Assembly: GCA_002269645.1 (NCBI GenBank)
Contig: NIVC01004696.1
Coordinates: 1 to 37,801 of the forward strand
Source of the DNA: Macrostomum lignano
Lineage: Eukaryota
Reading direction: 5' to 3'
DNA length: 37,801 bases
Below, one piece after another: positions 12,960-37,801 of the stretch; the first letter of the stretch is position 1; each line of letters begins with the position of its first letter. The position numbers and the translations under genes are program-made. The notes under the pieces were generated by a model. The model saw only the letters and a program-made list of their open reading frames with translations. It was not told the origin of the DNA and did not search any database.

Positions 12960-13300
12960 GCAAATGTTCATTAATGGCAGATTTTTTAGCCGGTGTTCTC
13001 TAACCCTCGTGTACAGGTGTCGTTTGGTCTTTCCTATATAGGAAATGCTCTTGTCATCAGAGCAATTAAATTTGTAAACAAAACCTGCAGCGAGAGGTCG
13101 GGGAACACTGGATTTCAGATTGTTCTGTTTGAGCCATAGAATTCTAGATAATATGGAAGTGAAGGCTTTTAAAAAGGGTTTGAAAATTTTACATAACCGG
13201 GCCGACTGTTTTTTCTTATTCCGTCTGACAAAACTGGGCCGTTGCTTCCCATAAAAGGGGTGTTGAGTGAGGGCCAATGAAATTTGGATGCTTGAATAGG
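12960..13300 (-). mobile_element. Penelope-like element fragment (GIY-YIG endonuclease region)
   Basis: VYKFNCSDDKSISYIGKTKRHLYTRVREH matches the PLE GIY-YIG pattern, preceded by an LxxPFYGK segment typical of the PLE linker. No clear RT core is visible; boundaries are approximate. Confidence 0.65.
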
Positions 13301-15545
13301 AGCACTGGGCCGTTGTACATAAGTCCGAAACAATTTTTTAGGGTTATGGGAATGCGCTTTGTAGAGATAGAGATAACTGCCATTTGAGTGCACGGGTGAG
13401 GGCTGTATAAATGTGCTTAAGGAAGGGGATTCGAAAAGGAACATTTCTATAAATAGTTCACTGTACTCGCTACCCTCTGCAAAAGGAGCACGGGACCATG
13501 GTGGGACAGGATATGATGCGGGTAAGAGAAAGAAACTGTACATTTATATGCGCAAGTCTTTGTTGTGTTGGTAAGATATAAGAAAACTTACAGAGGAGTT
13601 GCCAGAGGAAAAGAGCAGCTCTGCTTTTTCCACAGCAGGTTTCAGTCACACCAAGAGCTTCAAAATCTACCAGGCTTCCTTGCAGATTGCAAACGCTGGT
13701 TCGGACGGTACCGTGGCGTTAAGCCTCCTTGGTTATTCTTTCGCAGGAACGTAGAAGGGGCTTCGTTCACGTATCGTTCATCGTCAACAGCAACCAGCAG
13801 TTCGTCACAGGCTCGACAGTTTTTTGCACTAAAATCGACTTGGCGGAACTTGCCTGCGACGTAGAAAGTGACGACGTGATGTCATCAGCATCGCCTATTT
13901 CTCCCACTGCCTCCAGTTCGAGCTCAGTTTCATTGACTTCTTAATCTAGGCCTCAGGTGCTGCTTGATGATTTCGCTGCAAGGTAATGAATCTCCTGAGG
14001 CGCAACTGGCTGAACTTCAGAAGCGACACTGAGCGGATGGCTTTCTCGCTTAGGCCCTTTCTTTTACAGATTTTCCAGTCGCGCACGTTTTTTACACCAG
14101 TAAGATAGTAGAGCTGTCAGTCTATTATCCGATCTGAGACTGGATCTCGGCTGCAATCTCTCTTGTGCCTACCGATTGTGCTCGACTGCTCGCCCTCACG
14201 CTATGAATATGCCAGAGCGGAACAATAGATTGAACAAAAATTCCTGTCTCATTTCACTGCTTGCCCTGATTTTCAGAATTATATTCAAGCGCCCTGGCGG
14301 TTTACGAGCTAGGTGACTTTTTTGAATGCTCTTTGGATCAATCACGCTGAAAGTCAACTTTAAAGCCAGCTTTAAAGGCTTTTGCTTTTCAATGTTCACA
14401 GATTAACCGAGGAGGCTAAAAGGTACAGTCAGAACCAGCGTTTGCAATCTGTAAGAAAGCCTGGCAGATTTTGAAGCTCCAGAGCAGTAGCAGGCTTTTA
14501 AATTCACAGCACAGGCACACCATTCTGTTTGAGTCAGCATGCTCACTGCTCAGCTATAGCCTATATTCGAAAATCTACCAAAATGCAATTCCAAACGCAT
14601 TCTTAAAGATCAGCAAAAGTCAGCATATTATTTTGCAACTGATCTGCCGCAAAATGTTTAACGCAGCTGCTAAAGCTGGACTCGGCGACTATTAAGCCAA
14701 CCAGCTAGCTCTACCAGGAAATTATTGCGAAGTGAATTTATTGCTGCTTTTTCTATTGGACTTAATCATCAAAATAGAATTTTAACTATATTAACAAAGT
14801 AAAATAATTGTAATGATGATTGAATGAATTGAATTTCTTAATTTGAACTCAAATTTATTTCTTGATCAGAAACAGAAAAATCATTGTTGGAATGAGATTC
14901 AATGGGAATCCTACACTCACGTATTTTCAAGTCGGCCCGGTTATGTAAAGATCCAAAAAGCCTTCACTTCCATATTATCTAGAATTCTATGGTTTGAGCT
15001 AAGTGATTTATACGAGCCATAAAGTTAAAGCCACCAAATGTTAGCTAAAGAAGGGATTTTTTCAGTACAGTTGGAAGAAAAATAGTCAATACAGAAGTCA
15101 AAAAGCCTGCAGTAAGTATAGCTTTTTAGCTGGATAAAGCTCGTTTAACGTTTCTAGAGACAAAGGATTTATTGTAGAGAAAGTTTCAGATGGATCAGAT
15201 CAAAGGACGGCACTTTTGAGTTTATTTACGAAGAAGTCTTTGTTAGGCCCCGGATTTTCGGACCAATCAAAGCAGTTTGGAAATGTTTTTCGATCAAATT
15301 CCTAAACAGAAACCTATTAAGACACGCTAATTGGCCTCATTTTAGCATTGAGATGCAGAACTGAATTTAAAAAATCATTGCCCACAACTATGAGCTCGTT
15401 ATTGAAAGAATTCACAGATCTAAAAGGTCTGCCACGCCCAAAAATCGATCGATTCATTAATTGCACAGCAAACAAAGAACCGGAAATAGGGTATAAAAAT
15501 CTCAAGTATCGCCAAAAATTTTCCCCAGCACTGAAACACTCGAAG

Positions 15546-16554
15546 ATGTCACTCGCAGACGACTTTCGCATCGCCCTCATTGCCATCCTGGCCATGTCTA
15601 TTGTATTCAACGCATTATTTGTCGTCTTTACCGTGCGCCGGAAGATCGGGAGTCGACTCTGCACCATCCTGCTGCGCTCTCAAGCGGTCATTGATCTGCT
15701 TCTCATGAGCGCCAACATTCTGGTCATTCAGTTTCGTACATACGTACCTGCGCCTAGCCAGTCAGCGTCTGATGTTGCCTGGCTGATCTACTGCAAACTT
15801 TACCCTAGTCAAGTGATTTACTGGAGCCTGGTCTGCATGAGCGTCTACAACATTCTCTGCGTTTCAATTGAGCGTTGTATTTGTCTTTGCTGCCCATTCT
15901 GGTACAGATTGAACAAGCGAAGGCTCCTTACCATTCTCGCCATTGTCATTGCAGTTTCCCCATTCCTGGTAGAAGCCCCGTACTGTCTAGTTACGAGAAA
16001 CGTGGTCTACACTGACAATGGAAATGGAACAGTATTGAAGAGTTGTATTTACAACTTTATCAATGCGCAAGGAGAAAAAATAGTTGGTATATTGTACGTG
16101 ACGCTGTTCTGGATTGTTCCATTCTGCGCTATCGTGGTCCTGTATTTATGCATCATCCACCGAATTCGTCAGTCATCTAGCATGAGAGTGATTTCAGCTG
16201 GTGGTAGTAGCGGCAACGTGAGTACGGCGGCCAAGAAGCTGACCTTGACAACTGGGGTCACGGCAGCAGCTTTTGTGCTGCTATTCGACAGCGTCAGTGG
16301 ACAGCGTCACATTTCTGCTGGGCAACATCGAAATTCGAATCGTATTATCCCCCTTCTTTGACCAGCTTGACTCGTTTCTGGTTAGCATGAATAGCGCAGT
16401 GAATCCGCTGATCTACCTGATCTTCATGCCGGAGTTTCGCAACTTTCTTCTATGCTCAAGTCGCTCAACAAAGGCATCCGAGACTGACAAAACCCGAAAC
16501 AAGCCGGTGGTTGCAAACTCCGCCACAGAGATGACGCAGATCTCTCCTGGTTGA
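15546..16554 (+). pseudogene. Class A GPCR paralogue 2, frameshifted in TM6 by a 7-nt insertion (16287-16293)
   Basis: Collinear with paralogues 1 and 3 from MSLADDF through SIERC. Removing GACAGCG restores LLFSVDSVTFLL...NSAVNPLIY. Confidence 0.85.
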
Positions 16555-17523
16555 TCTAGCTAAGCTGCGTATAACAATTTCTGAACCGAAAGTAGCAACC
16601 AAAAGTAGCACGGATTTTTTATAGTACATAAGTCTTCTTCTATGTACTCGTAGGTTTAGCTGACTAACTATCTGAATACATATTTTTGACTACATTAAAC
16701 TTGTGTGTAGCTAGTACTAAATAAAAGATCTCGAACTGGTTTCGAAGGTAACTGACAAAACACTCGTGTAGACATTGTATTTTACTGACTTTGAGACTCT
16801 TTTAGAAGTGATTTTGTAAACTTTAAAAATTAGTTTGAATTGAGAATCTGTATGCATAACATCAGTGCGATAAATTATGGGAAACCTTTGAGGCAAAACC
16901 AACGATACTACTGGTGAATAGAAACAGCATGCAGCAATAAAGTCAACATTTTTGGATATTGTAAAAATGGTATCTAGCAAGAACGTAGATTATTGATTTG
17001 CCAACTAAGATATTCTCACCCTCGCCGAATCTTCGTGAAAATTTCCTGTCTATAGAACTGAGTGAGGCCGTGTCTTGACAGCACATTCTCTCAATCCGAC
17101 AAGACATCAGGAGTAGCATTGTGAAGTACAAGTGGAAACATAGCTAGAGTGGATTGTTTGTCACTCAGCCGATATGATATACAAAACTGCAATTCTTCAG
17201 GGTAGCCAGTACTACAAAACTCTATCAAATATTGAACCTATTCCTCTCATAAGTACAAGCCATAGGTGGATCAGTGGATGATGGATAAGCAAATAGGATC
17301 GATTAGAAACAGAAAAGGGTAACTCAGCAAACATAAAAAATTGCTTCCTTTTGACTAAAGTGGAATATGGAAACGCAAATAAGTATCGCTGTATCCTATA
17401 AGTATCCGTTATTAAAGTACCTTGCGATCTCACTCTCCCCACAACAGATACATATATATACGAAAATGTACAATTGTATTCATGTACTACCATGAAAACC
17501 TAGGAAACAGAAAAAAGTGTACA

Positions 17524-18465
17524 ATGTCAATTGAAAACGGATTTCGCATTGCATTAGTCACTCTATTGTGCGTTTCGTTTCTCCTCAACACCGTATTCGT
17601 TGGCTTCACAGTGCGACGCAAGATCGGCACCCGTCTCTGCACCGCCCTGCTGCGCAGTCAATCAGTCATCGACCTGCTGCTCATGGCGGCAAACTTACTG
17701 ATCATGCAGTTCAACAGTTACTTGCCGGAGCTCAGCCAATCGATTGCAGATGTTTGGTGGCAGATCTACTGCAAATTGTTTGCTAGCAGAGTTATTTATT
17801 GGAGCCTGGTCAGCATGAGCGTCTACAATCTTCTCGGCATCGCCGTTAAGCGCTGCGTTTGCCTCTGCTGTCCATTTTTGTACCGCGTGAACAAACGCAA
17901 GCTGCTAATAGGGATTTCAGTCACCATCGCAGTTTCGCCGCTTCTTGTTGAGGCACCTTACTGTCTGCTTTCAACAATGCTTAGTTATCAGGAAGTGAAC
18001 AATGGAACCAGCCACAAAAGCTGCATCTATGAACTCGATCGTCAGGCGGAACTAGGCTTCAGTGTTGCCTACGTGACATTGTTCTGGATTCTACCGTTCT
18101 GCGCAATCCTGCTGCTCTACCTGTGCATCATTATTCGAATTCGACGTTCAGTCAGCATGAGAGAGGACTCGGACGCTGGCTGCAGAGTTGGCAGAGCCGC
18201 TAGAAAACTTACCTTGACGACGGGCGTCACCGCCATTGCTTTCGTTTTCCTGTTTGCAATGGACAGCGTCACCTTTCTGCTTTATACTCTTGGCACCGGA
18301 TTTGTTCTACCGAAGTTTCTGGCCGAACTGGACTCGTTCCTGGTGAGCATGAACAGCGCGGTTAATCCGCTTATCTACTTGATCTTCCTGCCCGAGTTTC
18401 GTCACTTTATGCTCTGCTTTCGAAGTTCAGGAAGTGCAGAAGGTTCAGGTATCCCACGCACCTAA
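17524..18465 (+). CDS. Intronless class A GPCR paralogue 3, 313 aa
   Basis: Aligns end to end with paralogue 1; AVKRC at the DRY position and NSAVNPLIY. ATG chosen by alignment to the paralogue N-termini. Confidence 0.92.
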   Translation: MSIENGFRIALVTLLCVSFLLNTVFVGFTVRRKIGTRLCTALLRSQSVIDLLLMAANLLIMQFNSYLPELSQSIADVWWQIYCKLFASRVIYWSLVSMSVYNLLGIAVKRCVCLCCPFLYRVNKRKLLIGISVTIAVSPLLVEAPYCLLSTMLSYQEVNNGTSHKSCIYELDRQAELGFSVAYVTLFWILPFCAILLLYLCIIIRIRRSVSMREDSDAGCRVGRAARKLTLTTGVTAIAFVFLFAMDSVTFLLYTLGTGFVLPKFLAELDSFLVSMNSAVNPLIYLIFLPEFRHFMLCFRSSGSAEGSGIPRT

Positions 18466-24278: not shown

Positions 24279-24546
24279 AGTAGTATATAAAAAGACGCTT
24301 CTAGACCCAGAGCACTTTTTTAATGACCGTTTTAAGGGTCTAGAGGGGGGACACGGGGGGTAAATAAAAAAACACATCTAAACACCCTTAACACATCTAA
24401 TCACCCATAATCACCCCTAACAATAAAAATCACTTCCCAACACTTCCAAACACTCCCCAACACCCCCCTCGCGTCCCCCCTCTTAAGACCTTACAAACGG
24501 CCATTAAAATAAGGTCTGATCTAGAAGCGTCTTTTTCTATACTACT
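24279..24546. repeat. Terminal fold-back: ~82-bp imperfect inverted repeats (24279-24360 / 24463-24546) around a C/A-rich spacer
   Basis: AGTAGTATATAAAAAGACGCTTCTAG... versus ...CTAGAAGCGTCTTTTTCTATACTACT; the arms align throughout with scattered mismatches. Confidence 0.92.
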
Positions 24547-24603
24547 ACTCTATAACCCCTTGCCCGCGCCGCAGGCGCGAAGGGTCTTTTTCTGTTACTA
24601 AAA

Positions 24604-24918
24604 ATGACCCGAGTTTACACCTTTTCTGTTAGTGATACTTTTGAGACTGTTGCTAAAAATGCAGAGATAATAAAACAACATATTTTGAATGGAATAATTG
24701 ATGAAGTTTATTTAAAATATGACGACAAGCACGACCTAAAACTTTATCCATTAGAGCTAGATGAGATGTATGATTTAGAACAAGAGGGTGAGTTAATATT
24801 TCAACTTGGAGATTATTTAAATTCGGATGATTGGGAGGTTAGATCAACAGATTCCGAATCAACAAATAGTTCATATGAAACCAGTGATTCAGAGAATGAA
24901 AGTGAAATTTTTATGTGA
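24604..24918 (+). CDS. Polinton hypothetical acidic protein, 104 aa
   Basis: ATG in TAAAATG context; acidic C-terminus; no recognised domain. Confidence 0.55.
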   Translation: MTRVYTFSVSDTFETVAKNAEIIKQHILNGIIDEVYLKYDDKHDLKLYPLELDEMYDLEQEGELIFQLGDYLNSDDWEVRSTDSESTNSSYETSDSENESEIFM

Positions 24919-24934
24919 AAAAAATATTTAAAAA

Positions 24935-25159
24935 ATGAACTATTATTCTATAACAGAAACGACATTTATTGTGAAAAATATATATAAAAAAATGAAGGTA
25001 AACTATTCCTACATCGGAAATGTGCCGATTAATGAACTTAATGAAAATTTAAGTTTGATAACAGTTGAACAAATGTCAATAATAATATTAGTAACAATTA
25101 TAGTAATAATATTGTTTTTGTTTGTTATAAAAAATTTACTACCATGTTGTCTCAAGTAA
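24935..25159 (+). CDS. Polinton small membrane protein, 74 aa
   Basis: AAAAATG start; one hydrophobic helix (IIILVTIIVIILFLFVI). Confidence 0.45.
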   Translation: MNYYSITETTFIVKNIYKKMKVNYSYIGNVPINELNENLSLITVEQMSIIILVTIIVIILFLFVIKNLLPCCLK

Positions 25160-25169
25160 TTGTTCGAAC

Positions 25170-26771
25170 TTAGTTCGCTGATATTAGTTGGTTCTCATAA
25201 AACGAACCCAATATTTCTTCACCGTCCTTATCAGCAATTATATAGGTTGTAGGATTGGTATTTAAAACTTTACTGATAGTAAATTTCTCACTTATCTTCC
25301 AATATCCTTTTCTTCCTTTTTCAAACTTATCTTTCCATTTATAGATATAAACAGAATCACCAACCTTAAAAGATTTCTTTTTATTTTTTTCAAATTTTCC
25401 AAAAGTAACTTTAACGTTTTCAGGATTGTTATAAGCTTGTTGAGGAGTCATCTTTATCGCCGAATGATATGAATTGTTATAATCTTTCACTACGTCTGGT
25501 AATATTTTTACCCATTTTTGGTTACCATTAAGACTAAACTGAAACCATAATTTCTTACCTAAAGTTCTATTAAATCTTTCTATTAATGCGTTTTTACTCT
25601 CTCCATAAATAGAATAAATTTTATTAATATACTCCCCATTCGCGTCTTTTTTCCTTTCTTGTCCTTTTTCAAAATGATATAATTTATACATATGAGGATT
25701 GTAAAATTCTTTTCCTTCGTCAACACACAAACGTTCGCTTTTTTCTCCAAGACTTCTAAAAGCAGCAGCAACCTCCTCTCCCTTTTTGGATTTTAAAGGA
25801 ACAGCCCACGCGTATCGAGTAAAACCATCTAATATGGTTAAGATATATTTATATCCCAGATCTTTCGGCATCGACATTAAATCAGCATACCAAATTTCAT
25901 TCTTTTTGAAGTTCATGATTTTTCTATAAAATTTAGGTTTTCGATATTCTTTATGAAGAATCTTTGCCTCATCAGAACTTAACCCACTGCCACTTAATAG
26001 TAAACACTCAACACAATTATTTCCATGTTGATTATAATTAATTCCCAAACCAAATTTAACTTTAGACTGCAAAATCTTTTTAACCATCCACCTAGTTAAT
26101 CTCTGACCTACTGATAATCCCTGCAAGTTATCTAATCCTTGAATCATTTTTTGATCGGCTTCATGTTTTAATCTTAATGCTTCCTCGGGTGAGTTCTTAT
26201 CAGCATCTCTGTATGCTAAGTCATGATAGTATGCTAACCAATCAATACCGTTAATGGGAATTGAATCGGCTTTTGGAGTATTATCAGGATTTAATCGGAG
26301 ATCGAGTCGAGTCAACCCGGCCTTTATACCTTTGCTTTCACAAAGGAGTAGACTGTGTCTTAAGCTATCATAAGGATTGACTAAGTCCTTCAAGCCCACC
26401 AGCGTACAGTCGTTGCATCTCAACCATACTCAAGTCATATGAGGTTAGGTTTTCGATTCACTCTTGCCCATATATTTATCTTCAAGCTTGTTACCGTTGG
26501 GAAGAGGAGTTACCTCTGTTCCTTTGTAATCTTTCGAAAACAAAGTGGTACTTGAAGCTTTAGGGATTGAGTGAGCGGCTGGTGTTGCCACTAATAGTGA
26601 CTAGCAGTAGCTTTGCATCTACCACTCGGGCACAGCTCGAGCTCCACCCGCGAAGTTGTAAGATGGGATGTGTAATTCATTTGTATACCTTCCAGTAGTA
26701 AAGATTGGTGGTAAGCTTGTTAATCCTTTTTGAACATCTAACAATCCTCCTTCAAACACTATTTGGCTCAT
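25170..26771 (-). CDS. PLA2-like domain fused to an rve/DDE integrase; two exons (26771-26646 and ~26321-25170) split by a group I intron; ~425 aa
   Basis: Exon 1 ends ELHIPSYNFAG. Exon 2 continues TRLDLRL...PINGIDWLAYYHDLAY...HEAD...KVKFGLG (parvovirus/adintovirus-type PLA2 with HD dyad), then WYADL, YILTILDGFTRYAWAVPLKSK, LCVDEGKEF, IERFNRT, YNNSYHSAIKMTP and KVGDSV without a stop. Confidence 0.88.
26322..26645 (-). ncRNA. Group I intron (IC-like, with P5abc), ORF-less, ~324 nt
   Basis: P1: exon CGGGU pairs with GCCCG, with the U-G wobble at the 5' splice site. P3: CACCAGC/GCUGGUG. P4: UCACUC/GAGUGA. A-rich bulge GGUAACAAGCU. P6a/b: CCUAAC-CUCA..UGAG-UAUGG. R: CAACGACUG and S: AAGACACAGUCU (P7 GACUG/CAGUC). 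P9: CCUUUGU-GAAA-GCAAAGG. Terminal G. The 3' splice site is uncertain by a few nt. Confidence 0.88.
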
Positions 26772-27369
26772 TTTTAATAGCCTTAAAAATACATGAAAGC
26801 ACCAATTGTTTTGCAAATTCTTCTATGGTTGGTTGTTTATCATTTTTTGAAATATTATCTACAGCAACTAAGTATCTTTTATTTCTCCAATTTTCAGACT
26901 TTTTAATTTGTTCTTCATCGCGATAATCAAAAGATGAAGCAGGAATAAAATGGTCAACATGCAAAACACCAATATAATCTTTTGGCACATAATAATGTTT
27001 TGTGAAATTTAACCAATCAGTAAAGAATTCAATTGAGCAACCAAGGTAATCAACAGTATGATTATTTTTTCGAGCATTATTAGATTTTAGAAGAGAATAT
27101 ATTCTATTTCGTGTGTTTAAAATAAGTTTGTAATTTTCATCAGTTAATCTTCTTTCATTTTGATATTTTCTGCGCCTTTCTATATTATTTTTATCATATT
27201 CTTTTTTCCATTGAAGCTTATATTCACGATTTTTCTCATACCATTCTTTATCATACTTTCTCTCACAAGGTTTGCAAATACTATAATATCTATTTTGATC
27301 TCTACGAAATCTAAAATAATCCAAAATTTTCTCTTCTTTACATTTATTACAAATTTTTGTTTCATCCAT
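26752..27369 (-). CDS. Free-standing HNH-family endonuclease with N-terminal CxxC...CxxC zinc finger, 205 aa
   Basis: KICNKC...ICKPC, basic helical linker, YLGCSIE, HVDHFIP...WRN...DNISKNDK. TATAAAATG start; overlaps the PLA2 start by 20 nt. Confidence 0.75.
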   Translation of the reverse strand: MDETKICNKCKEEKILDYFRFRRDQNRYYSICKPCERKYDKEWYEKNREYKLQWKKEYDKNNIERRRKYQNERRLTDENYKLILNTRNRIYSLLKSNNARKNNHTVDYLGCSIEFFTDWLNFTKHYYVPKDYIGVLHVDHFIPASSFDYRDEEQIKKSENWRNKRYLVAVDNISKNDKQPTIEEFAKQLVLSCIFKAIKNEPNSV

Positions 27370-27396
27370 TTTATAAAAAATAAATTTAACAATTAA

Positions 27397-28062
27397 TTAA
27401 ACACCAGTATGTCCAGCAGCTTTCGCAGCAGCTAAAACAAGTTTTCTAGGAGTTTTAAATCCATCACCAACAGCTGGTTTGTTATTTATAGAATTAACAA
27501 TCCTTTTATACAAGCTGGTATTTTTAACAGCTCCTCCTAACTCATCATAAAAAATTCTAGCACTTATTAATTCATCCCTAGTATATAAATCAGGGTTAAA
27601 CTTTACCCTAGGGTTCATAACAATATTATATGCTCCACCCAATTCTCTATATAGTTCATTTCGATTTTTATCAACTCCACCAATTCGATAATTATTATTA
27701 CCTAAATCTGTCGCAGCAATACTAGCTGGTACTCTTGGATATTGTTCCCGATCGCCCCGCTCTGCACGTCTAATCTCTGCAATTCTCAATTGTGCTTGAT
27801 CAACATCATAAGCAGGCGGCTCATCCAAAATTTCATCCTCTTTTGGCTCCGTATTTTTAGCAATTTTTTCCAGAAGATCTTTATCTGTTTTTTCTAGTTC
27901 ACTAATTTTCCCAGTAATAGGATTAACAAAAGGAGCAGCAAATCTTTCACCCGCTAATTGTATTCCTAACTTTCTTTTTTGTAAATTTCTAACAAAATCA
28001 GAATATCTTTGCTTCTCTTTATAAATCGCTAACTCTCCATCAACGTCCATAAATTGACTCAT
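27397..28062 (-). CDS. Polinton conserved core-like protein (PZ-like?), 221 aa
   Basis: Intact ORF with TAAAAAATG start, divergent from the MCP gene. N-terminal APFVNPIT and C-terminal LVLAAAKAAGHT loosely recall Polinton PZ/core proteins. Confidence 0.55.
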   Translation of the reverse strand: MSQFMDVDGELAIYKEKQRYSDFVRNLQKRKLGIQLAGERFAAPFVNPITGKISELEKTDKDLLEKIAKNTEPKEDEILDEPPAYDVDQAQLRIAEIRRAERGDREQYPRVPASIAATDLGNNNYRIGGVDKNRNELYRELGGAYNIVMNPRVKFNPDLYTRDELISARIFYDELGGAVKNTSLYKRIVNSINNKPAVGDGFKTPRKLVLAAAKAAGHTGV

Positions 28063-28096
28063 TTTTTAACATAAAAAACTTTTTTAACTTAAAAAA

Positions 28097-29569
28097 ATGG
28101 CTGAAACAAAAACTATGTGGAGTGATAAATTTCATTTCAAAAAGCACCGACAGTATATTAATGAGGTCAGAGCAAGAGATTTAAATTATACCCTACCAAC
28201 AAGTGATAATTCAAATAACTTTACTACTGGAACGGTAACTTTTGACATCGGCGCAACCAACACTATATTGGATATGAAAAATGCGTTTTTCCGCGTTAGA
28301 TGGTTGTATACTAGAAATGATGGAACTGCTCTTGCAGCCGGAGATATCGCAGATCGATCCGGAATAATAATAGAAAATGATTGGTTTTATAAATGTTTTT
28401 CCCAAGCTCAACTAACTGTTAATGGTGCTGAGGTTGAGACATCATCAAACCCCGCAGAGATTAATGGAGTTTTGAAACATTTAAATTATACTTATTTATC
28501 AAAACAAGTTGGTGATAATGTTGGGTGGATGCCGGATAAAGGTAACGGTCAAGCAGTAGTTTTCCCTAATGTACAAAACGCAGCCGGTGCAGATACTGCA
28601 GCGCTAATTGTTTACCTTAATACAAACATAGTTCCAGTTGTAACCACTATGACTAATACAAAAGATATTAATACTGGTTTTATAGATCGTCAGAAAAAAT
28701 TCCCAGTCGCGGTTTTAACCACAGCAACAGCATATGAGCAGGACTTTTCAATCTTTCCACTATTTGGGTTTTTCTCACCAAATCGGGTATGGAAAGGATT
28801 AAAATTTGGGATACAGTTGCAAATATCTGGTGGATATCAGCCTAGGATACTTTATGGAACCTCAATTTCAACCGATATAGCAGTTCGTATAGATTCAATT
28901 CAATTAGTCGTACCAACTATTGAGGTAACAGCCCCACTTTTAAAACACATCGATAATCAGTTAACGCATGATCAGGAAATATTTTATTTGAATCGTCGAC
29001 ATTTTATGCGAACCATTAATAATAACCAGGATTCATTCCAGTGGCAAATACTGACATCAAAACGTCGGGTGAGATATATTTTTGTTTGGTTTAAGATAAC
29101 AAATAGAAGGAGTAAAAGAGCAAATGGGGATTTATATTGGCTTCAATCCGGTGCCATAGCAGAACAAGCAGCCACCGCAACAGACAATGCGGCTGCAGCT
29201 ATTAACGAGTTTAATGTTCAGAATATCCGCCTGCAGGTTGATGATCAATATTATCCGGTTAAAGACCCCCTAAATTTAAATATAGCAAATAATAATGTTA
29301 ATGATTTTATAAAATATTATCAAGATTATGCTAAAAATGAAGCGTATGCCGTCCCTCAGTACACACCCACAGAGTTTCTAAACATTCATCCAGTGGTTGT
29401 TTATGATCTAACGGCACAGAAAGAAAACGTAGCCAATATTGGACTTAATTATATGTTAGAGATTAATAAAACTGGTAATCAGGCACTTGACGCCCACGTA
29501 TTGTTTCTAGAGGAATATATGTCAATTGCTAAAGCTGATGGCACGATTGTTCGGGACGCCCCGCTGTAA
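28097..29569 (+). CDS. Major capsid protein (double jelly-roll, Polinton PY type), 490 aa
   Basis: FSQAQLTVNGAEVETSSNP, VRYIFVWF, NIRLQVDDQYYP and PVVVYDLTAQ; size and position upstream of the ATPase and penton genes. Confidence 0.85.
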   Translation: MAETKTMWSDKFHFKKHRQYINEVRARDLNYTLPTSDNSNNFTTGTVTFDIGATNTILDMKNAFFRVRWLYTRNDGTALAAGDIADRSGIIIENDWFYKCFSQAQLTVNGAEVETSSNPAEINGVLKHLNYTYLSKQVGDNVGWMPDKGNGQAVVFPNVQNAAGADTAALIVYLNTNIVPVVTTMTNTKDINTGFIDRQKKFPVAVLTTATAYEQDFSIFPLFGFFSPNRVWKGLKFGIQLQISGGYQPRILYGTSISTDIAVRIDSIQLVVPTIEVTAPLLKHIDNQLTHDQEIFYLNRRHFMRTINNNQDSFQWQILTSKRRVRYIFVWFKITNRRSKRANGDLYWLQSGAIAEQAATATDNAAAAINEFNVQNIRLQVDDQYYPVKDPLNLNIANNNVNDFIKYYQDYAKNEAYAVPQYTPTEFLNIHPVVVYDLTAQKENVANIGLNYMLEINKTGNQALDAHVLFLEEYMSIAKADGTIVRDAPL

Positions 29570-29618
29570 GCGGCGCAGGTCTCCGACCGTCGCGCCTATT
29601 TAAATTATTTCTTTAAAA

Positions 29619-30413
29619 ATGGTAAAGGCAAAACACGATAAGATATTTCCAAATGATCCTTTTCTTTGTTTAGTAATTGGTGGGTCGGGTAAAGGAAAAA
29701 CACACTTTGTTTACGATTTATTAACAACAGATGGAATGTTAGACTATAATAATTTAATAATTTATACTAATAAACCTAGAATAAAATATTATGAATTTCT
29801 TAAACATGGATTAAAAAACAAATTAAAAAAAGATGTCTTGTTTAGAATGTTAAGAGCATATGAGCAATATGAGGATGATGACGAACCGCGATTTACACTC
29901 GATGACATTGAGGATTTATGTAAAACAATGGCACAACAGCCAGAAAACATCACCGATCGCCCCGAAGGGTCGCGGACTTCGTCCGATCGAGCCCCAACTG
30001 TTAGAGTATCAACCCGATTAGCCTATGATCAAATTCCAAAACATGATAAAACACTAATTATTTTTGATGATTGTATTAATGACGGCGATCAAGAATTGCA
30101 AAAGGAAATTTTTGTTAGTGGTAGAGGAGATGGAATTGGAGCTTTTTATCTTACTCAATCCTTTAGAGAATTAGAATCGATTATAAAAAAGAATGCAAGT
30201 TGTTGTGTAATGTTTGATTTAGATAATTATGATTTACAAAATATACACGCTAGATTTAATCCCGGGTTGGATGCAAAACCATTTAAAAGTATGTGTAAAA
30301 AAATTTGGGATGATAGCCAATACAAACATATTTATATCAATCCGAGGTTAGAAAGGAAACATAGAATTTTAACAAATTTGATAAAAGAAGATAATGAGGA
30401 AGAAGAGACTTAG
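29619..30413 (+). CDS. A32-like genome-packaging ATPase, 264 aa
   Basis: Walker A LVIGGSGKGKT, Walker B LIIFDD and GR..IGAFYLTQSF. Confidence 0.92.
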   Translation: MVKAKHDKIFPNDPFLCLVIGGSGKGKTHFVYDLLTTDGMLDYNNLIIYTNKPRIKYYEFLKHGLKNKLKKDVLFRMLRAYEQYEDDDEPRFTLDDIEDLCKTMAQQPENITDRPEGSRTSSDRAPTVRVSTRLAYDQIPKHDKTLIIFDDCINDGDQELQKEIFVSGRGDGIGAFYLTQSFRELESIIKKNASCCVMFDLDNYDLQNIHARFNPGLDAKPFKSMCKKIWDDSQYKHIYINPRLERKHRILTNLIKEDNEEEET

Positions 30414-30477
30414 TTCGTGCCTATGGCACGATCGGACGGAGTCCGCGAACCAAAGGTTCGATTTCCCCACTATAAAA

Positions 30478-31263
30478 ATGACTACAAATTTAGATACTAT
30501 AAAACAATTGGTAGATCGAACTAATTCAAAATTTAGTACAACATTACAGTTTATAATGACAACCAGCGAGCAACGGATTCAATTGCGCGATCCATTACAA
30601 CTTGATCAAAGTCTAAGTTATCAAATAGGTTTGATACTATTTTCGGTTTTCAACATGCCTCAATTAATTAATGCAACAAATAATCAATTTAGATATTCTA
30701 AAGATTCCGGAGCCAATTGGACAACATTTAGCGTTAACCCAGGAGCGTATAGCTATACTGATTTGAATGCTTATATAGAAGGAGAATTAACATCTAACGG
30801 CGATTGGGTAGCAGGAGCAATTGTTATAGGTGTTGATTTACCATCTGGCAGATTCACACTATCACTAGGATCCGGATATCAGGTTGATTTCACAATTGCA
30901 AATTCACTCAGAACCATACTTGGATTTAATTCCCGAATAGTTACCACATCAAGCACCGGTGATACAGTTGGAAATATAGAGGGTGGAGTAAATACAATTA
31001 ATATAACAACCGACATTTCAAACGGTGGTTATATAACAGATAATAATGGAGTTTTGGTTCAACGTGGAATTATTTATTCAATCCCATTTCTTGCTGTTCC
31101 AATTGGAGAGAAAATGATTGTTTCACCTCAAACCCCAATATATTACCCATTAAATCAATATAATGTTCAATCAATTTATATTAGGATTGTAGATGAAAGC
31201 GATAGATTAATAAGTTTTGGTGGGCAATCAATAACAGTAATTTTACGTATAAAACAGGTTTAA
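30478..31263 (+). CDS. Minor capsid protein (penton, Polinton PX type), 261 aa
   Basis: VNPGAYSYTDLNAYI, SLRTILGF, PQTPIYYPL and IYIRIVDESDRLISFGGQSITVILRI. ATG at 30478 in TATAAAAATG context. Confidence 0.85.
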   Translation: MTTNLDTIKQLVDRTNSKFSTTLQFIMTTSEQRIQLRDPLQLDQSLSYQIGLILFSVFNMPQLINATNNQFRYSKDSGANWTTFSVNPGAYSYTDLNAYIEGELTSNGDWVAGAIVIGVDLPSGRFTLSLGSGYQVDFTIANSLRTILGFNSRIVTTSSTGDTVGNIEGGVNTINITTDISNGGYITDNNGVLVQRGIIYSIPFLAVPIGEKMIVSPQTPIYYPLNQYNVQSIYIRIVDESDRLISFGGQSITVILRIKQV

Positions 31264-31307
31264 TAGAACCGAAGGTTCGCGGACTTTGTCCGTTTCCTAT
31301 AGTAAAA

Positions 31308-31517
31308 ATGGGTAATCGAACAACATGTTCGCGTGCAAAGCACGATAATAATAATAATTTACTAAAAAAACAATCAGAAAAAGTTAAAAAAGCTGAAGAT
31401 AATTACGAACTAGAACTAGCAAAATTAAGGCAGTTACAAGCTGATAAAATAAGAAAGGAATTGTTAAAACCCACACCTACTAAACTAACTAAAACCAAAA
31501 GTTTTTCAGGAACATAA
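31308..31517 (+). CDS. Small basic Polinton protein, 69 aa
   Basis: TAAAAATG start; stop immediately before the protease ATG. Confidence 0.45.
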   Translation: MGNRTTCSRAKHDNNNNLLKKQSEKVKKAEDNYELELAKLRQLQADKIRKELLKPTPTKLTKTKSFSGT

Positions 31518-31518
31518 A

Positions 31519-31989
31519 ATGACCATGACGTGGGATGATTTTAAACAAAGATATGGAACAGACACAACAAGCAATATCGAATTAACAAATTGGGCGCGGC
31601 AGTTAAAAATAAAACCATTTAGATGTGTTATGCGAGATGAGATAAAAGACTTACCACAATATGGATGTTTCATTGTTAATATTGAAACAACAAAAGAAAA
31701 TGGTGTTCATTGGTCAGCAGTTTATTCAAAACCAAAACTTGTTTATTTTTTTGATTCATACGCGCTTCCTCCGTTACAGGAAATAAAAGATAAATTTAAT
31801 CATACTAAAAATCGTTTATGTGGAGATTATCACGAACAATTTCAAACATTTGATAAAAGTTATTGCGGGCAAGCGGCGTTGTATTTTTTATATCGACTTT
31901 CGAATGAAGCTCGTGTAAACCCCGAAGTATTTAAGATGATCATGCAAAGCATGCGTGCCGATGGCACGATTTTAGACTCTATAAAATAG
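31519..31989 (+). CDS. Adenain-like cysteine (maturation) protease, 156 aa
   Basis: GVHW (His), FFDSY (Asp) and FQ...YCG (Gln/Cys) catalytic motifs. Confidence 0.92.
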   Translation: MTMTWDDFKQRYGTDTTSNIELTNWARQLKIKPFRCVMRDEIKDLPQYGCFIVNIETTKENGVHWSAVYSKPKLVYFFDSYALPPLQEIKDKFNHTKNRLCGDYHEQFQTFDKSYCGQAALYFLYRLSNEARVNPEVFKMIMQSMRADGTILDSIK

Positions 31990-31999
31990 ACAGTAAAAA

Positions 32000-34047
32000 A
32001 TGATATTTTCTGGAACACCCTCATGGAACGGAACATCAAGTACTGGTGGTGGTGGTACTTCTGGTGGAATAAGTGTTACATTCGGAGATAATCGATATAT
32101 TAATGAAGATGAAGGTTATAAAAAAAGTGAAGTTGATACTAAACTAAATTTAAAAGGAATGTTGCAGATTCCTATACCAAAACTCAAATAGATAATTCCC
32201 TAAATTTAAAACGGAACGTAGCCGATTCATATACAAAAACAGAGGTTGACAATGGGTTAAATTTAAAAAGAGATATAACTGATTCTTATTCTCGAACTCA
32301 AATAGATGATTCATTAAATTTAAAACGCAATACGGCCGATTCTTATAGCAAAACTGAAGTTGATAATTCCCTAAATTTAAAAAGAGATATAACTGATTCT
32401 TATAGCAAAACTGAAGTTGATAATTCCCTAAATTTAAAAAGAGATATAACTGATTCTTATAGCAAAACTGAAGTTGATAATTCCCTAAATTTAAAAAGAG
32501 ATATAACTGATTCTTATAGCAAAACTGAAGTTGATAATTCCCTAAATTTAAAAAGAGATATAACTGATTCCTATACCAAAACGGAGGTTGATAATTTAGT
32601 TGGGGGTGGAGCCTTAAAGCAGGATCGATTCCAAACGGTTGAAACTGGTCACATACCTACCATGGCAGATTGGAGTGGAAATGGTTTTGCAATAACCGCA
32701 AGCACTGCATTTAATACAACTGATTTTGCAAGTTGGAAAGCGTTTGATGGAAATGATTCAACAGATTGGGCAACAAATAATACTCAAACCGATTATTGGA
32801 TTCAAGTCCAATGCCCTTCCGCAATAATGTGTTATAAAATTGATTTACGTGGTAGGCCATCACCTTCAACCGAGCACCCAGCATCATGGCGATTTGAGGG
32901 AAGTAATGACAATACAAGTTGGGACGTATTAATACCTGCGGATAGTTCTGTAGCAATAAATAACTCAACTCAAACAATTAATGTCACACAAAATTTTGAT
33001 AAAACATATTCATATTTCAGATTGTTCTGTCTTACATCAACTTCGGGTTCAACCAACCCGGGTCTGTCAACCTTCCAGATTTATAGACAGACGTTTACAA
33101 TTCTTGATTTAAATTTGGGAGTGGTTAATCAATCAATTGATATGGGAGGTAATACAATTACTAATATCTCTACTATAAACAATAACAGTTCTGTTGTTAC
33201 TAAAGGTTATGTTGATACGCGAGTAACACAAACGGCGGATGGCCGAATGTCTTTTAACGATAAAATAAAATTGGATGGAATACCTGCAATCGATGCCGCT
33301 TTGTACGAGCCTGTAATTTGCAATTGGACTGGATATCAAAACCCAACCACAGCCGGTGATATTTTTCCAACTGGAAGTTTTGTTGGCAGCGCTACTTATA
33401 TTGATTATCAAAATGGAGTTAGAATTACTGATGAAGCAAGTGGTCAGTCTGGAGCGTTGCAATTTAATTTCACCCATTTTCGTAATATCTCCGCCTCCTT
33501 CTATTTCCGAGTTGCTAATGCTACAGGAGATGGAGCTGACGCTGTTTGGTTTTATGCATATTGTCACGAACGTCCAACAAGTGAATTTGGATCCGGGTTA
33601 ACAACCCGCGCCGGCTTGATTGTGTTTGCGAGTGAATGGCATGATAGAGTTGGGGTTGTTTGGAGCAATATAAAATCAGACGGAGCAACAGTTCGTAATG
33701 ATGTTCTTAATGACGCAGATCAAACTATAACCTATGCTAATATTGATAACGGCGATTGGCATCTTTTTGAAATTAATATTTTAAATCAAAGAGTTTGGTA
33801 TCAAATAAGCACATACAATGTATCAGCTAATACATATACGCTAATTGGGCAAAACTTTTTTACATATGATAGTGGAACTTGGGGAACTTTAGATAAAACG
33901 GGAACTCTTATGGGTTTTGGTGCTCGAACTGGAGGATCGGATGCTGCACATTTTATTCGTGGTGCAGCCGTTTGTGGTAGCACATCAGCAGGATATGATT
34001 TTGCTGCGACCGCATATTTGGAACGGCCACAAACCGAAATAACTTAA
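32000..34047 (+). CDS. Fibre/receptor-binding protein: 19-aa stalk repeats, discoidin (F5/8 type C)-like domain, neck motif, legume-lectin-like domain; one 1-nt frameshift at ~32153; ~682 aa if repaired
   Basis: Adding one A to the run at 32152-32155 joins ORF 32000 to the frame of ORF 32662 with no stop. Motifs: SYSKTEVDNSLNLKRDITD repeats; WKAFDG...WIQV...WRFEGSND...YFRL; IDMGGNTITN...VVTKGYVD; GQSGAL...GADAVWF...GFGARTGG...H. Confidence 0.8.
32140..32597 (+). repeat. 57-bp coding tandem repeat, 8 copies
   Basis: AAATTTAAAA recurs at 32146, 32202, 32259, 32316, 32373, 32430, 32487 and 32544; the last four units are nearly identical. Confidence 0.95.
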
Positions 34048-34100
34048 ATCAGCTAATGCTGCGACCCTATGGGGCGATAACATAAATATTTCTATATAAA

Positions 34101-34427
34101 ATGGCTTTTAGTAGAACTCCATCGATGCGGCAAAATAATGTTATTATTCCTATTCCTAAACAAGAATCAAATATAAAAACATTCAAATCTCATACCAAAT
34201 TTTTATTTAGTACTGTAAATGTTCAGGATAATAAGAAGCTTCAAGAATTAATTAAGTTATTAAAAAATCATATTATACTTCAAGAGTTTTGGAAAATAGG
34301 ATTTAAATGGGAGAAAAAAGAAAGAATCACTCCAATACAATACCTATTGAGCTCGGGACAAATCCCCAAAGAGCGTGGGGAATTCATTTTGGTGCTATTA
34401 AAAATAGACGAGAATGTCGGTATCTGA
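34101..34427 (+). CDS. Polinton hypothetical protein, 108 aa
   Basis: TATAAAATG start; overlaps the next ORF. Confidence 0.55.
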   Translation: MAFSRTPSMRQNNVIIPIPKQESNIKTFKSHTKFLFSTVNVQDNKKLQELIKLLKNHIILQEFWKIGFKWEKKERITPIQYLLSSGQIPKERGEFILVLLKIDENVGI

Positions 34428-35057
34428 AGCAGATAAATGGGAACGCGACCGGTTCAACCAACGTAAAGGTCAGATGTTGAGTAATGTTGATCGAATAAAT
34501 TATGATTATGATTTATATACTAAAAAAGTAAGAAGAATTTCAAATCATATCAGAAATATGGACTTTTTCAATATTGGATTTGGAAGCTTATCAATGTTAT
34601 GTGTAATCGTTTTAGGTATTTTACAATCTATTCCAACTCTTAATTTATCTCAATTATTTTTAGGTATTTCAATTGGCTCAATATCAGGTTTTGAATTGAT
34701 CAGAACTTATCAATACTTTTAGCAATTAAATTATATCTTAAAAAAAGAAAGGAAAAATATAAATCATTAAGAGATGTTGCAAAACAATATAAAAATCAAT
34801 TATATTTATATGTGCAAAAAATATTGGATGACGGAGAGATAACGATTCATGAATTATCAACCGCGGTTGAATTATATGAAAAATATTTAAAAGATAGAAA
34901 TAGAATTTTAGATGTTGAAACTTTTACCGATATGGAATTAAAAGAGTTGAGACTCGATAAACCCAAAGCTCCACCTATAGAAACATTAGGTATTTACGAA
35001 CCTGAAACTATTGCTACTGGGCACAAAGCCGCGGTCAGGAAGTGCTGTAGAACTTAA
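34414..35057 (+). CDS. Putative membrane-active protein (resembles the adintovirus 'GasderminX'-type ORF), frameshift near 34695
   Basis: Two hydrophobic helices, then in the shifted frame KLYLKKRKEKY...KILDDGEITIHEL...YEKY, a pattern I associate with this Polinton ORF family. Recalled from memory, not searched. Confidence 0.45.
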
Positions 35058-35167
35058 GGTTGTTTAGTTTTTCTAATGCATATGTTATATATTCTTCCCA
35101 AAGTGGTAACTCTCTTCTGATCTAGGTTTAAATTTTTTATCAATACATAAAAATTCCAATGACTTTT

Positions 35168-35530
35168 TCATAACATTTCGTTAGGTATGTTACCTATCCT
35201 TATAAACTTTGTATTCTCTCGAATAAGAAAATTGAAATAATATCCAACTAAAATTAAAATCCTTTCAGAGTCTTTCGAACTTAATCCCTTTCCTTTATTT
35301 AAATGGAAAAAGTTATTATATAAATAAACATTATTTCCGGGAATTAAAATTGGATCAGAAATGTCTCTTGTAAGATTTCTTAAAATTGTGTTTTTAAAAT
35401 AGTAATATGAGTTTTCAATCTTTTTTGTTTTTTCAAATTGATATATTTTAGAACATGAATAACACATATGATATATATCTCCGTTTGCTGTTTGCCCTCT
35501 GTGCATAGTCACATTACATTTATTACACAT
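35168..35530 (-). CDS. Hypothetical protein with N-terminal CxxC/CxxC zinc ribbon, 120 aa
   Basis: CNKC...CYSC. Confidence 0.45.
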   Translation of the reverse strand: MCNKCNVTMHRGQTANGDIYHMCYSCSKIYQFEKTKKIENSYYYFKNTILRNLTRDISDPILIPGNNVYLYNNFFHLNKGKGLSSKDSERILILVGYYFNFLIRENTKFIRIGNIPNEML

Positions 35531-35569
35531 AAATGTCTTTCATTTTTTTGTTATTTTTTTAGATTAAAA

Positions 35570-35902
35570 ATGGAGAGCTGGTTCAAAACCGATTCTAATG
35601 TGATTAATTATCTCACACCCAATATGTTGGAGAATAAAGAATATAATATTATATGTTTGAGACAGGTTAAATTTATTGGGCTTCAATCAATATTTTTACA
35701 ATTAGATGGGCAAAAAATTTTATGTCTAAGCGGAGATGATGTTAAAAATTTTCCTGTTTTAGTTATTAATAAACCTAAAGCGTTTGTTATGAAATACAGC
35801 AACGAGGGTGGATTGCAATTTAAACTAAAACAAACAAATAATAAAAAGAGTGATAGGACTGTAAAATTGGCTTCGGTTTGGGAGGATGACGACGAAGACT
35901 AA
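35570..35902 (+). CDS. Hypothetical beta-rich protein with acidic tail (possible OB-fold ssDNA-binding protein), 110 aa
   Basis: TTAAAAATG start; ends WEDDDED. The function is inference only. Confidence 0.45.
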   Translation: MESWFKTDSNVINYLTPNMLENKEYNIICLRQVKFIGLQSIFLQLDGQKILCLSGDDVKNFPVLVINKPKAFVMKYSNEGGLQFKLKQTNNKKSDRTVKLASVWEDDDED

Positions 35903-35917
35903 ATTTTTTATAAGAAA

Positions 35918-36277
35918 ATGGATACGATAAAAATCCTTATCACTAAAGAGCGTGAACTTAATGATATTAATAAAAAAATAAATATAATTATATCTCAGAA
36001 ATATCATGAGTATGGGGACGATATGTTTCCCATCCGATATGAGATAGATAAAAGAAAACGTTTTTTAAGACAAGATATTGTTTATGCTGAAATAGTAATT
36101 GAAATTGAAATAGATAGATTGGTTAGAAAAATAAAAAAACTTAGGAAAAAAATAAAGGATTGTTTAAGTTACCCTGCCGACTGTGAGGATAATTGGTGCT
36201 CAATAATATATGAAATTGAAGTTAATGATTTGCTCAAACAATTACATGCTTTAGTTTTTTACAGACCCGATAAGTAA
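35918..36277 (+). CDS. Polinton hypothetical protein, 119 aa
   Basis: AAAATG start; coiled-coil-like composition; converges on the pPolB 3' end. Confidence 0.45.
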   Translation: MDTIKILITKERELNDINKKINIIISQKYHEYGDDMFPIRYEIDKRKRFLRQDIVYAEIVIEIEIDRLVRKIKKLRKKIKDCLSYPADCEDNWCSIIYEIEVNDLLKQLHALVFYRPDK

Positions 36278-37801
36278 TTTTTCTGTTAATCTCTTCCAGT
36301 TATTCAAGACTTTTTCCTTATTTAATTTTTTAAGTTCTTTTGGAAATGTTGAATAATAATTATCTATATCTTTTTCATATTCTAGAAATGTATTATATTC
36401 ACAATCACATTCGTATTCACAATCACAATCGTAATAATAATTATTTATTGCCGCTTTGTATTCATTATATTTACTTATTATATCTTCTTTTTGTTTTTTA
36501 TCTTTTATCATATTTTTTATCTCTTCTTTTAAACCAAATGGATATGTTTTAATTTTATCATCTAAATATCTTTTATCATCAAATGGACTTAATGTTTTTT
36601 ATCTGTCTCGATGACAAACATCTGATGCTTATCTGAATTTAATCGATATTGTGGAGCATGATAATTTTCAATTGTATTAAGGTAATCTAAAAGTACGTTT
36701 TTATAATCATCAAATGTTATCTTTTTACTGCTGCTCTTGATACCCCTTTTATTTTTTTTACCTCTCCCTCCTGTCCTAAAACCTTAAATGCATAGCATTT
36801 TGATCTTATTGCTATAAACTCGGTTATGATTTTGCTATTTAATTCATCTTTCATTTTAAGTACAACTTTTTTATTTTGATCTGATTTTAAAGGATGGTTA
36901 TCCGGATAGTCGGAGGTATCCAATGTATCCTTAATTTTTTCCATATCTTTATAGACATCGAACCTTTGGTTCGCGGACTCCGTCCGGTCATCTGTTTCAA
37001 CCTTAAATTCCAAACTGTCGGTGTCTGCATATATTGGATAGTTATCTGGCCATGTTTTATTTATAACATCATAATAGTATTCATACATTACTAGCTTTGC
37101 AAAATCTAAAACAAACCATTCCAATAAATATTGGTTTAAGAAATTTTGTTGTTTTATTTCTCATATGAATACCCATAAAGTTATCATCAAATTTTATAAA
37201 GTCTTTAAAGTTAGGTTTTGAGAAATATTTCTTTGCTTTATCAATATCCTTTTCTAAATGGAATTGGGTTCTATCTCTAATATTTTCAACCGTTTTTCCA
37301 TAAAAAGCATTATTCATTAATTTCCAATAATCTTTCTCAAAATTTGTTTTTGACATCTGTCTCTGATTTGAATTAAAGTCAATTATTTAGCTAACCAATC
37401 TTCCTCAATAAACGATATTGTTCGATGTACTTTAGACACTTTTAATCCCTGCTTTTCATAAAATTGTAGAAGCTTATAATGCACTACATAGTTTTTCTTA
37501 TCATGTAAATTTAATATTAATTTTTGTTGCTAGATGTTTTGCATTATCTACTTTAAGATAATCTTTTTGTGTTTGTGATAAATCATCTTCATTAACTGAA
37601 CAATGCTCTGGAGCTAAAGGATATTTATATGTTTTGCTTTTGCTTCCGAGTATATTGCAAATCCACTTCTACGATACAGCCCCTTCCTTCGGGAATATTT
37701 TTGTAATAATCGGGGTCATCTTCCATTGGAAATCAGCTATTGCGTAATTTTTGTTTCATACAACCACCGTATAAATTGTTTGCATCTAGATATAATACAT
37801 A
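36251..37801 (-). CDS. Protein-primed family B DNA polymerase, C-terminal part, at least five frameshifts
   Basis: Across frames: YLDANNLYG (motif A, at the window end), YPLAPE, LILNLHDKKNYVVHY, KLMNNAFYGKTVEN (motif B), IYADTDS (motif C), KCYAF, KIKGVS and LSPFDDKRY. The last frame runs into ORF 36251-36511. Confidence 0.95.

Follow-up and report, generated by a model that had tools for sequence, protein, structure and literature searches.

The window, that is, the entire stretch of 37,801 nucleotides that we analyzed, consists of host DNA followed by a copy of a Polinton. The host DNA makes up the first 24.3 kb; its genes, among them flippase, EF-hand and rhodopsin-family GPCR genes, point to an animal-type eukaryote. 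A cluster at 11168-18465 comprises three GPCR genes of the rhodopsin family, each with a single exon and similar to one another, two of them confirmed by Pfam, and the host ORFs at 2431-2883 and 6537-7337 derive from tandem-array repeats. The Polinton (24279..37801, no strand assigned) begins with an AGTAGT-type motif at 24279, which we take to be its terminus, and reaches the contig end; genome G000 contains many copies of it.

In the window Polinton, Pfam recognizes rve integrase, A32 ATPase (29619-30413) and F5/8-domain genes. A capsid-like gene lies at 28097-29569, the ORF at 31519-31989 is presumably a protease, judging from its motif, and fragments near 36717-37356 carry motifs that we take to be those of PolB; in the scan of the Polinton ORFs, PolB and protease had no Pfam matches. 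Full copies additionally encode Adeno_PX, a double jelly-roll (DJR) capsid in family 2, and an EndoVII domain in a PolB-like ORF. Over the copies scanned, rve, A32, DJR (family 2), Adeno_PX and PLA2 were recognized. Family 1 is that of the window copy; its PLA2-integrase is ∼60% identical to that of family 2 and its capsid ∼24% identical to the family 2 DJR capsid. The Endonuclease VII domain of the PolB-like ORF occurs in both families (L157:6716-9181; L196:8574-9941), as has been reported for some nematode and oomycete Polintons; for nematode Polinton PolB, the accessible text of bioRxiv 2023.08.22.554363 describes HNH/VSR domains. Family 2 also encodes a primase-D5 helicase (e.g. L196).

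Between a 221-aa gene whose family we did not recognize (27397..28062, minus strand) and the PLA2-integrase gene lies a variable slot. In the window it is occupied by a free-standing HNH/endonuclease-VII-type gene (26752-27369, minus strand; 205 aa), one of several alternative tenants. The preliminary description had reported a free-standing HNH nuclease adjoining an ORF-less group I intron, and this layout is confirmed: the HNH gene shares 20 nt with the start of the interrupted gene, and its end lies 106 nt upstream of the 5′ splice site, close to the 105 bp originally estimated.

The PLA2-integrase gene and its intron

Exon 1 of the PLA2-integrase gene (26646..26771, minus strand) starts with an ATG at 26771 and ends in the glycine codon of the PLA2 motif. 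There a group I intron of about 325 nt, which we call type A (26321..26645, minus strand), interrupts the sequence Gly|Pro, corresponding to GGN|CC, and exon 2 (25170..26320, minus strand) encodes the remainder of the PLA2 domain and then the rve integrase. The intron contains no ATG-initiated ORF of 80 aa or more. Its 5′ splice site follows position 26646, at a U.G pair in P1, and P1, P3, P4, P6, P7 and P9 all pair, with helix strings chosen by hand. An Rfam scan of the whole window at E≤0.1 missed the intron; a local scan recovers Intron_gpI at 26329-26629 (minus strand) with 43.5 bits (E 8e-10), short of the gathering score of 50. Same-site introns of other copies score 61, 85 and 81 bits, above this threshold. 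The intron-less family-1 copies L035, L104 and L111 show that the insertion separates the Gly of the PLA2 motif from its Pro, and in L160 Pfam matches Phospholip_A2_4 above its cut-off, fused to rve. The PLA2 domain and the rve integrase (25170-26771 in the window) are fused in frame in intron-less copies of both families (L160:7869-9140; L164:4863-6221) and apparently also in L171 and L339.

The 3′ end of the intron is approximate, since candidate terminal Gs lie at 26316-26322. In all type A copies read, exon 2 starts two bases longer than in intron-less copies; a terminal G homologous to that of the other introns would leave the reading frame shifted, and other Gs near the 3′ end pair comparably with the guide sequence. 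A second type, B, differs from type A in P1, P3, P4, P6 and P7, and the peripheral sequence is common to both. Comparison of the window intron (26321-26645) with L063 shows a common P2 and P5 extension and catalytic cores that differ by compensatory pairs, as if the core had been swapped by recombination. Terminal A is rare in group I introns, with a precedent in coral mitochondria. Most type B introns (e.g. L063, L031) appear to terminate in A, not G: of 109 sequences, 73 have A, 25 have G and 11 are out of register.

Some copies show further changes. At 26562, a base that near-identical copies and contigs of three runs contain is missing from the window intron, through either a copy-specific loss or an assembly error. 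In L020, a host-like element of ∼830 nt with terminal repeats, itself carrying six GGNCC, sits inside P8 of a type A intron, and in L148-L150 remnants of PLA2 accompany a decayed type-A-like intron that lies away from any recognizable intact Polinton. In contigs of four runs that we guessed to be RNA, none of the joints listed lies at the type A intron, a result neutral on splicing; one contig of depth 3.2 from these runs matches the intron-less allele found in the genome (L035 type) better than a spliced product.

The tenants of the slot

The HNH protein has an N-terminal CxxC...CxxC segment, a helical linker and a D-H...N...N core. It matches phrog_1035 endonuclease VII with an E-value of 1.7e-11, and its family numbers at least 3385 proteins. 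The catalytic residues are intact: D139, H140, N163 and N172 are invariant in an alignment of 91 sequences (87 database proteins and four local alleles). Pfam gave no HNH match for the window protein and weak ones for four of the 91 homologs, and PDB sequence searches yielded weak matches only. The structure check of the fold was poor and uninformative (model pLDDT 60, core <50), with a match to Hpy99I at E 1.0 over no more than 40 columns.

Relatives of this protein lie in or next to group I introns of giant viruses, so a homing-type enzyme, as the preliminary description proposed, is credible. One relative (31% identity over 179 aa) is encoded inside a group I intron of a giant-virus Rpb2 gene (L335), a motif scan found the same arrangement in L217, and in L330 and L333 relatives follow immediately downstream of group I-like introns. 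Like the window protein, the intron-encoded phrog_1035-type proteins of L335 and L217 have the D-H...N...N core; the window gene differs from them in being free-standing and in having mosaic alleles, which diverge to ∼52% identity within one Polinton family. A loose search for the P1 pattern returned mostly chance matches, with only L217 and L259 being relevant. In the giant-virus contigs L330, L331, L333 and L334, ubiquitin genes are split by related group I introns, and some of these genes are directly followed by a free-standing HNH gene of the window family; from their sequence layout, they are better candidates than the window for collaborative homing in the strict sense. The giant-virus contigs L335 and L338 hold, within 16 kb, four and two Rfam group I introns, respectively.

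The alternative slot gene, not present in the window copy, encodes a 167-aa PD-(D/E)xK nuclease of the Eco47II family. EcoO109I cleaves RGGNCCY and AvaII GGWCC. The Pfam family RE_Eco47II (PF09553) is matched by L063 with E 3.8e-4, by L147 above the cut-off, and by 90 of 99 aligned Eco-like homologs. For the structure model (pLDDT 95.6), the top fold was EcoO109I (Z 9.5, rmsd 3.9, 166 residues aligned; next fold Z 6.1), and Foldseek placed DdmD at rank 1 and EcoO109I and AvaII at ranks 2-6. Sequence identity to characterized GGNCC enzymes is low, at 13% for EcoO109I. Eco47II itself is associated with GGNCC (PMC10305163, accessible part).

A third tenant is an acidic protein of 153-155 aa (L021:1031-1489; L086:1365-1829; L191, L192), of which the 155-aa form had no Atlas or Pfam matches. 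Partial relatives of its gene adjoin HNH in L104 and L111 and the Eco-like gene in L191 and L192.

We surveyed slot and intron in 30 loci, the first to be collected and chosen by likeness to the window, and in 120 of 124 further listed regions, leaving out four family-2 places. The underlying search scored 150 of 510 candidates, so all counts are lower bounds, and they come from recombinant copies that are not independent of one another. Both exons are present in 136 of L001-L141 (L030, L101, L106, L134 and L136 were dropped). Among these 136 copies listed, the slot holds HNH in 97, the Eco-like gene in 37 and the 155-aa gene in 2, and the intron is present in 133. HNH accompanies type B introns in 78 copies, type A in 16 and no intron in 3; the corresponding numbers for the Eco-like gene are 30, 7 and 0. 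The absence of the latter from intron-less family-1 copies (0/37 vs. 3/97, p 0.56) is not significant on its own.

The co-occurrence of HNH and intron, which the preliminary description proposed to check, is incomplete: 39 of the 136 copies listed have the intron without HNH, and all three intron-less copies carry HNH. A pattern search for intron-less junctions returned these three, L035, L104 and L111, and one place of another family. Their HNH genes, full-length with the motif in L035 and L104, stand beside an intact site, which had been named as an observation against the partnership; it is made here in part, on three copies whose HNH is not the allele of the window. HNH and intron are decoupled and their partnership is weak.

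The evidence on joint inheritance of HNH and intron is divided. In L001-L009, HNH, exon 1 and intron form a block of 98.4-100% identity with outer flank blocks of 89-100%, which favors the preliminary description, and the copies nearest the window allele have type A introns in 13 of 17 cases and are never intron-less (0/17). Against this, every block tested is mosaic and recombines freely, and one identical type A intron occurs in six window-allele, four Eco-like and two other-HNH backgrounds. The exon-1 codons just upstream of the site vary with the slot tenant, being of GYS type in 4 of 94 copies with HNH and in 15 of 37 with the Eco-like gene (p 9e-7, inflated by kinship). ORFs are intact in 70 of 91 cases for HNH and in 96 of 128 for the integrase, and dN/dS values estimated on hand-picked intact alleles (Eco-like 0.28, HNH 0.46, integrase 0.11) show both nuclease genes to be under purifying selection.

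In family 2, the Eco-like gene has a different location. Six of the seven intron-bearing junctions read (L147, L195, L197, L198, L205, L209) contain the Eco-like ORF within an intron at the same site; the seventh, L206, has a decayed gap of 735 nt and no Eco-like gene. Inspection of family-2 places by eye found the gene within ∼1 kb in 21 of 23 split and in none of 15 intron-less ones. This is the pattern of a mobile intron: the nuclease ORF lies in the intron, and alleles without the intron are also without the gene. L171, an independent contig from a metagenome, likewise has the Eco-like gene inside an intron at the same site of a PLA2 gene, and many database homologs have tails that read through intron core sequence. 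In a midpoint-rooted tree the free-standing Eco-like clade is sister to the family-2 intronic ORFs (support 97/86; enclosing node 89/83) among intron-tailed clades, most 'intronic' labels coming from protein tails and not from DNA. Because of this nested position an exit of the nuclease from the intron is favored, and the tree suggests that the gene moved from an intronic to a free-standing state. In the viral contigs and plasmids searched we found neither PLA2-integrase relatives nor a close Eco-like gene.

Avoidance of GGNCC

Codons for the dipeptide Gly-Pro always contain GGNCC. The window Polinton has no GGNCC over its whole span, against 13.6-14.1 expected, and the host part has 45 against 45.7. 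In four intron-bearing family-1 copies, observed and expected numbers are 0/13.6, 0/17.1, 1/19.5 and 0/17.9, in three family-2 copies 0/16.8, 0/15.7 and 0/15.7, and in two intron-less copies 2/16.2 and 1/13.4, one site in each of the latter being the junction itself. The redundant set of copy loci, 368 kb in total, contains nine sites where ∼447 are expected: three at intron-less junctions and six in the host-like insertion of L020. The purge is also visible in the proteins: the ORFs scanned in seven intron-bearing copies encode no Gly-Pro, where 5-8 are expected per copy, and those of each intron-less copy encode one. A third Polinton has 7 sites against 12.5 expected and two Gly-Pro.

In a ranking of gapped dinucleotide pairs by depletion, made for two copies, GGNCC came first. 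Exceptions are four sites near the F5/8 gene of L152 and three in L161, besides the junction, in the gap between the capsid and ATPase matches. The contigs of distant Eco-like homologs (27-34% identity) are depleted inconsistently. The longer RGGNCCY was ruled out as the target: several intron-less junctions (L035, family 2) do not fit it, and all GGNCC are purged. No second purged motif could be attributed to HNH; CTNAG is low, but it is low in host DNA too. CCGG is also under-used in family 2, with 3-5 per 13-15 kb compared to 17-22 in family 1. No methyltransferase family was found in 43 of the 67 ORFs listed for family-1 and family-2 copies (duplicates and nested frames left out) or in 16 window ORFs.

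Interpretation and comparison with known systems

The idea of a homing-type module with a free-standing nuclease is upheld, probably with a different enzyme in the main role: HNH is probably not the partner of the intron, and the Eco47II-like nuclease fits the site, the same-site intron and the purge. We consider it probable that this nuclease, with a presumed GGNCC specificity, is the cognate enzyme of the intron in a methylase-free system of homing and competition in which the intron would confer immunity.

Under this proposal, the Polinton lineage has purged GGNCC everywhere, Gly-Pro dipeptides included, save for the conserved Gly-Pro of the PLA2 motif. At that point the site is interrupted in the DNA by the group I intron, which is presumably spliced from the RNA. 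A genome with nuclease and intron would therefore be immune without a methylase, because the site is purged elsewhere and the intron breaks the remaining one. An intron-less relative would be cut at the insertion site and repaired from an intron-bearing copy, which amounts to homing, and unrelated DNA sharing the compartment would be cut widely. Family 2 would retain the state in which the nuclease is still intronic, and in family 1 it would have been relocated upstream as a free-standing gene. Near fixation of the intron (133/136 copies listed) would leave the nuclease few targets among its kin, and an HNH homing endonuclease may then have taken the slot in most copies, probably cutting a different target nearby, perhaps in the slot or in exon 1, whose codons vary with the tenant. 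A point against the proposal is the toxicity that an enzyme cutting GGNCC should have for host chromatin, where the density of sites is normal; our guess is that the host genome would be spared by expression limited to the productive phase or taking place outside chromatin.

In the original alternative, HNH itself would act in collaborative homing, cutting the PLA2 site of intron-less copies and spreading together with the ORF-less intron, perhaps in the case of the window allele only. This alternative draws on the 106 nt adjacency, the intact catalytic residues, the intron-encoded giant-virus relatives, the near-identical block of L001-L009 and the prevalence of type A introns around the window allele. 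We nevertheless regard it as unlikely, as HNH is present, in other alleles, in each of the three intron-less copies and absent from 39 that have the intron, the identical type A intron is found with three kinds of slot background, all blocks are mosaic, the first 30 loci were selected for likeness to the window, and the GGNCC purge would be left unexplained. That HNH is an accessory viral nuclease, serving genome processing or attack on host or competitor DNA, and that slot exchange reflects ordinary hotspot recombination without HNH homing, appears quite improbable. A gene under purifying selection, with a fraction of intact ORFs akin to that of the integrase and surrounded by freely recombining blocks, would be compatible with such a role, and packaging or restriction functions have been proposed for HNH genes of PLVs (PMC12220804, in the text accessible); yet the gene is dispensable, being missing from 39 of the 136 copies listed, it is mutually exclusive with another nuclease and has relatives located inside group I introns, and the exon-1 codons track the slot tenant, though linkage alone could suffice for the latter.

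Finally, the Eco-like ORF could be a conventional PD-(D/E)xK homing endonuclease with a long site, or now inactive, and the purge the relic of another enzyme, from a symbiont or helper virus. Homing enzymes of this fold with long sites exist, I-Ssp6803I being an example, the nearest fold, EcoO109I, has a longer site, and toxicity to host DNA would be avoided. This explanation is improbable in our view: the purge is near-total whatever the flanks in two families of ∼60% protein identity, it reaches the protein level and spares the third Polinton and the host, the L035 and family-2 junctions misfit RGGNCCY, and the purged sequence agrees with the specificity of the nuclease family whose gene is carried by the intron there.

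The Eco47II-like module has several partial counterparts. Collaborative homing has been defined, with endonuclease turnover raised as an origin of such loci (PMC10448857), and is mentioned for a poxvirus helicase (PMC11296320); cases described in the accessible parts of these sources are F-CphI and the psbA intron of cyanophage S-PM2, T3/T7-like phages and the ICP1 terminase. Like them, the window has a free-standing nuclease gene beside a group I intron that lacks an ORF and interrupts a conserved motif. It differs in its carrier, a virus-like element integrated in a eukaryotic genome, in the alternation of two unrelated nucleases in the slot, in the occurrence of HNH beside intact sites, in a site-matching enzyme of restriction type with a presumed 5-bp site, and in the move from intron to free-standing gene that the tree suggests. 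With PD-(D/E)xK mobile introns such as that of I-Ssp6803I, the system has in common a restriction-fold nuclease encoded in the intron (family 2, L171) and coexisting intron-plus and intron-minus alleles; here, however, the enzyme is of the Eco47II family and the uniqueness of the target seemingly comes from the genome purge, not from a long site. Giant-virus restriction-modification systems are methylase-paired, as far as the accessible text of PMC7253447 describes them. With these systems and the type II restriction enzymes Eco47II, EcoO109I and AvaII, the Eco-like nuclease shares its family and fold and a plausible role against co-infecting DNA, whereas we found no cognate methyltransferase in the ORFs scanned, and self-protection would rest on site avoidance and a presumably self-splicing intron. 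Closest in setting are PLVs of a few protist groups, for which the text available to us reports ORF-less group I introns of 309-376 nt in small genes, with no endonuclease assigned, and free-standing HNH and GIY-YIG genes (PMC12220804); Supplementary Tables S11-S12 of that study may list related introns. Our case differs by its animal-type host, the PLA2-integrase gene and the identification of a candidate enzyme and target. In the accessible literature, which included few subscription papers, we found neither an intron enzyme of the Eco47II family nor a purge of GGNCC described, nor any group I introns from Polintons of animals.

We judge the chances to be somewhat better than even that a short-site (GGNCC) restriction enzyme here acts both as homing endonuclease and as weapon, that the intron shields an indispensable Gly-Pro, that the enzyme left the intron for the slot and is now being replaced by HNH, and that all stages coexist in the nuclear genome of a single animal. 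In the sources available, nuclear group I introns are described as confined to the rDNA of microbial eukaryotes; here more than 130 copies lie in a protein-coding gene of an element that has integrated into a genome of animal type. The system suggests that self can be told from non-self in a third way, in addition to methylation and long sites, namely by purging the site and splicing around the one that cannot be lost. A genome in which a putative homing nuclease is found inside the intron, free-standing and replaced would allow a direct test of the origins of collaborative-homing loci. A frequent cutter under purifying selection would imply that these Polintons replicate and compete away from host chromatin, or at its expense, and this bears on the question of whether animal Polintons are active viruses.
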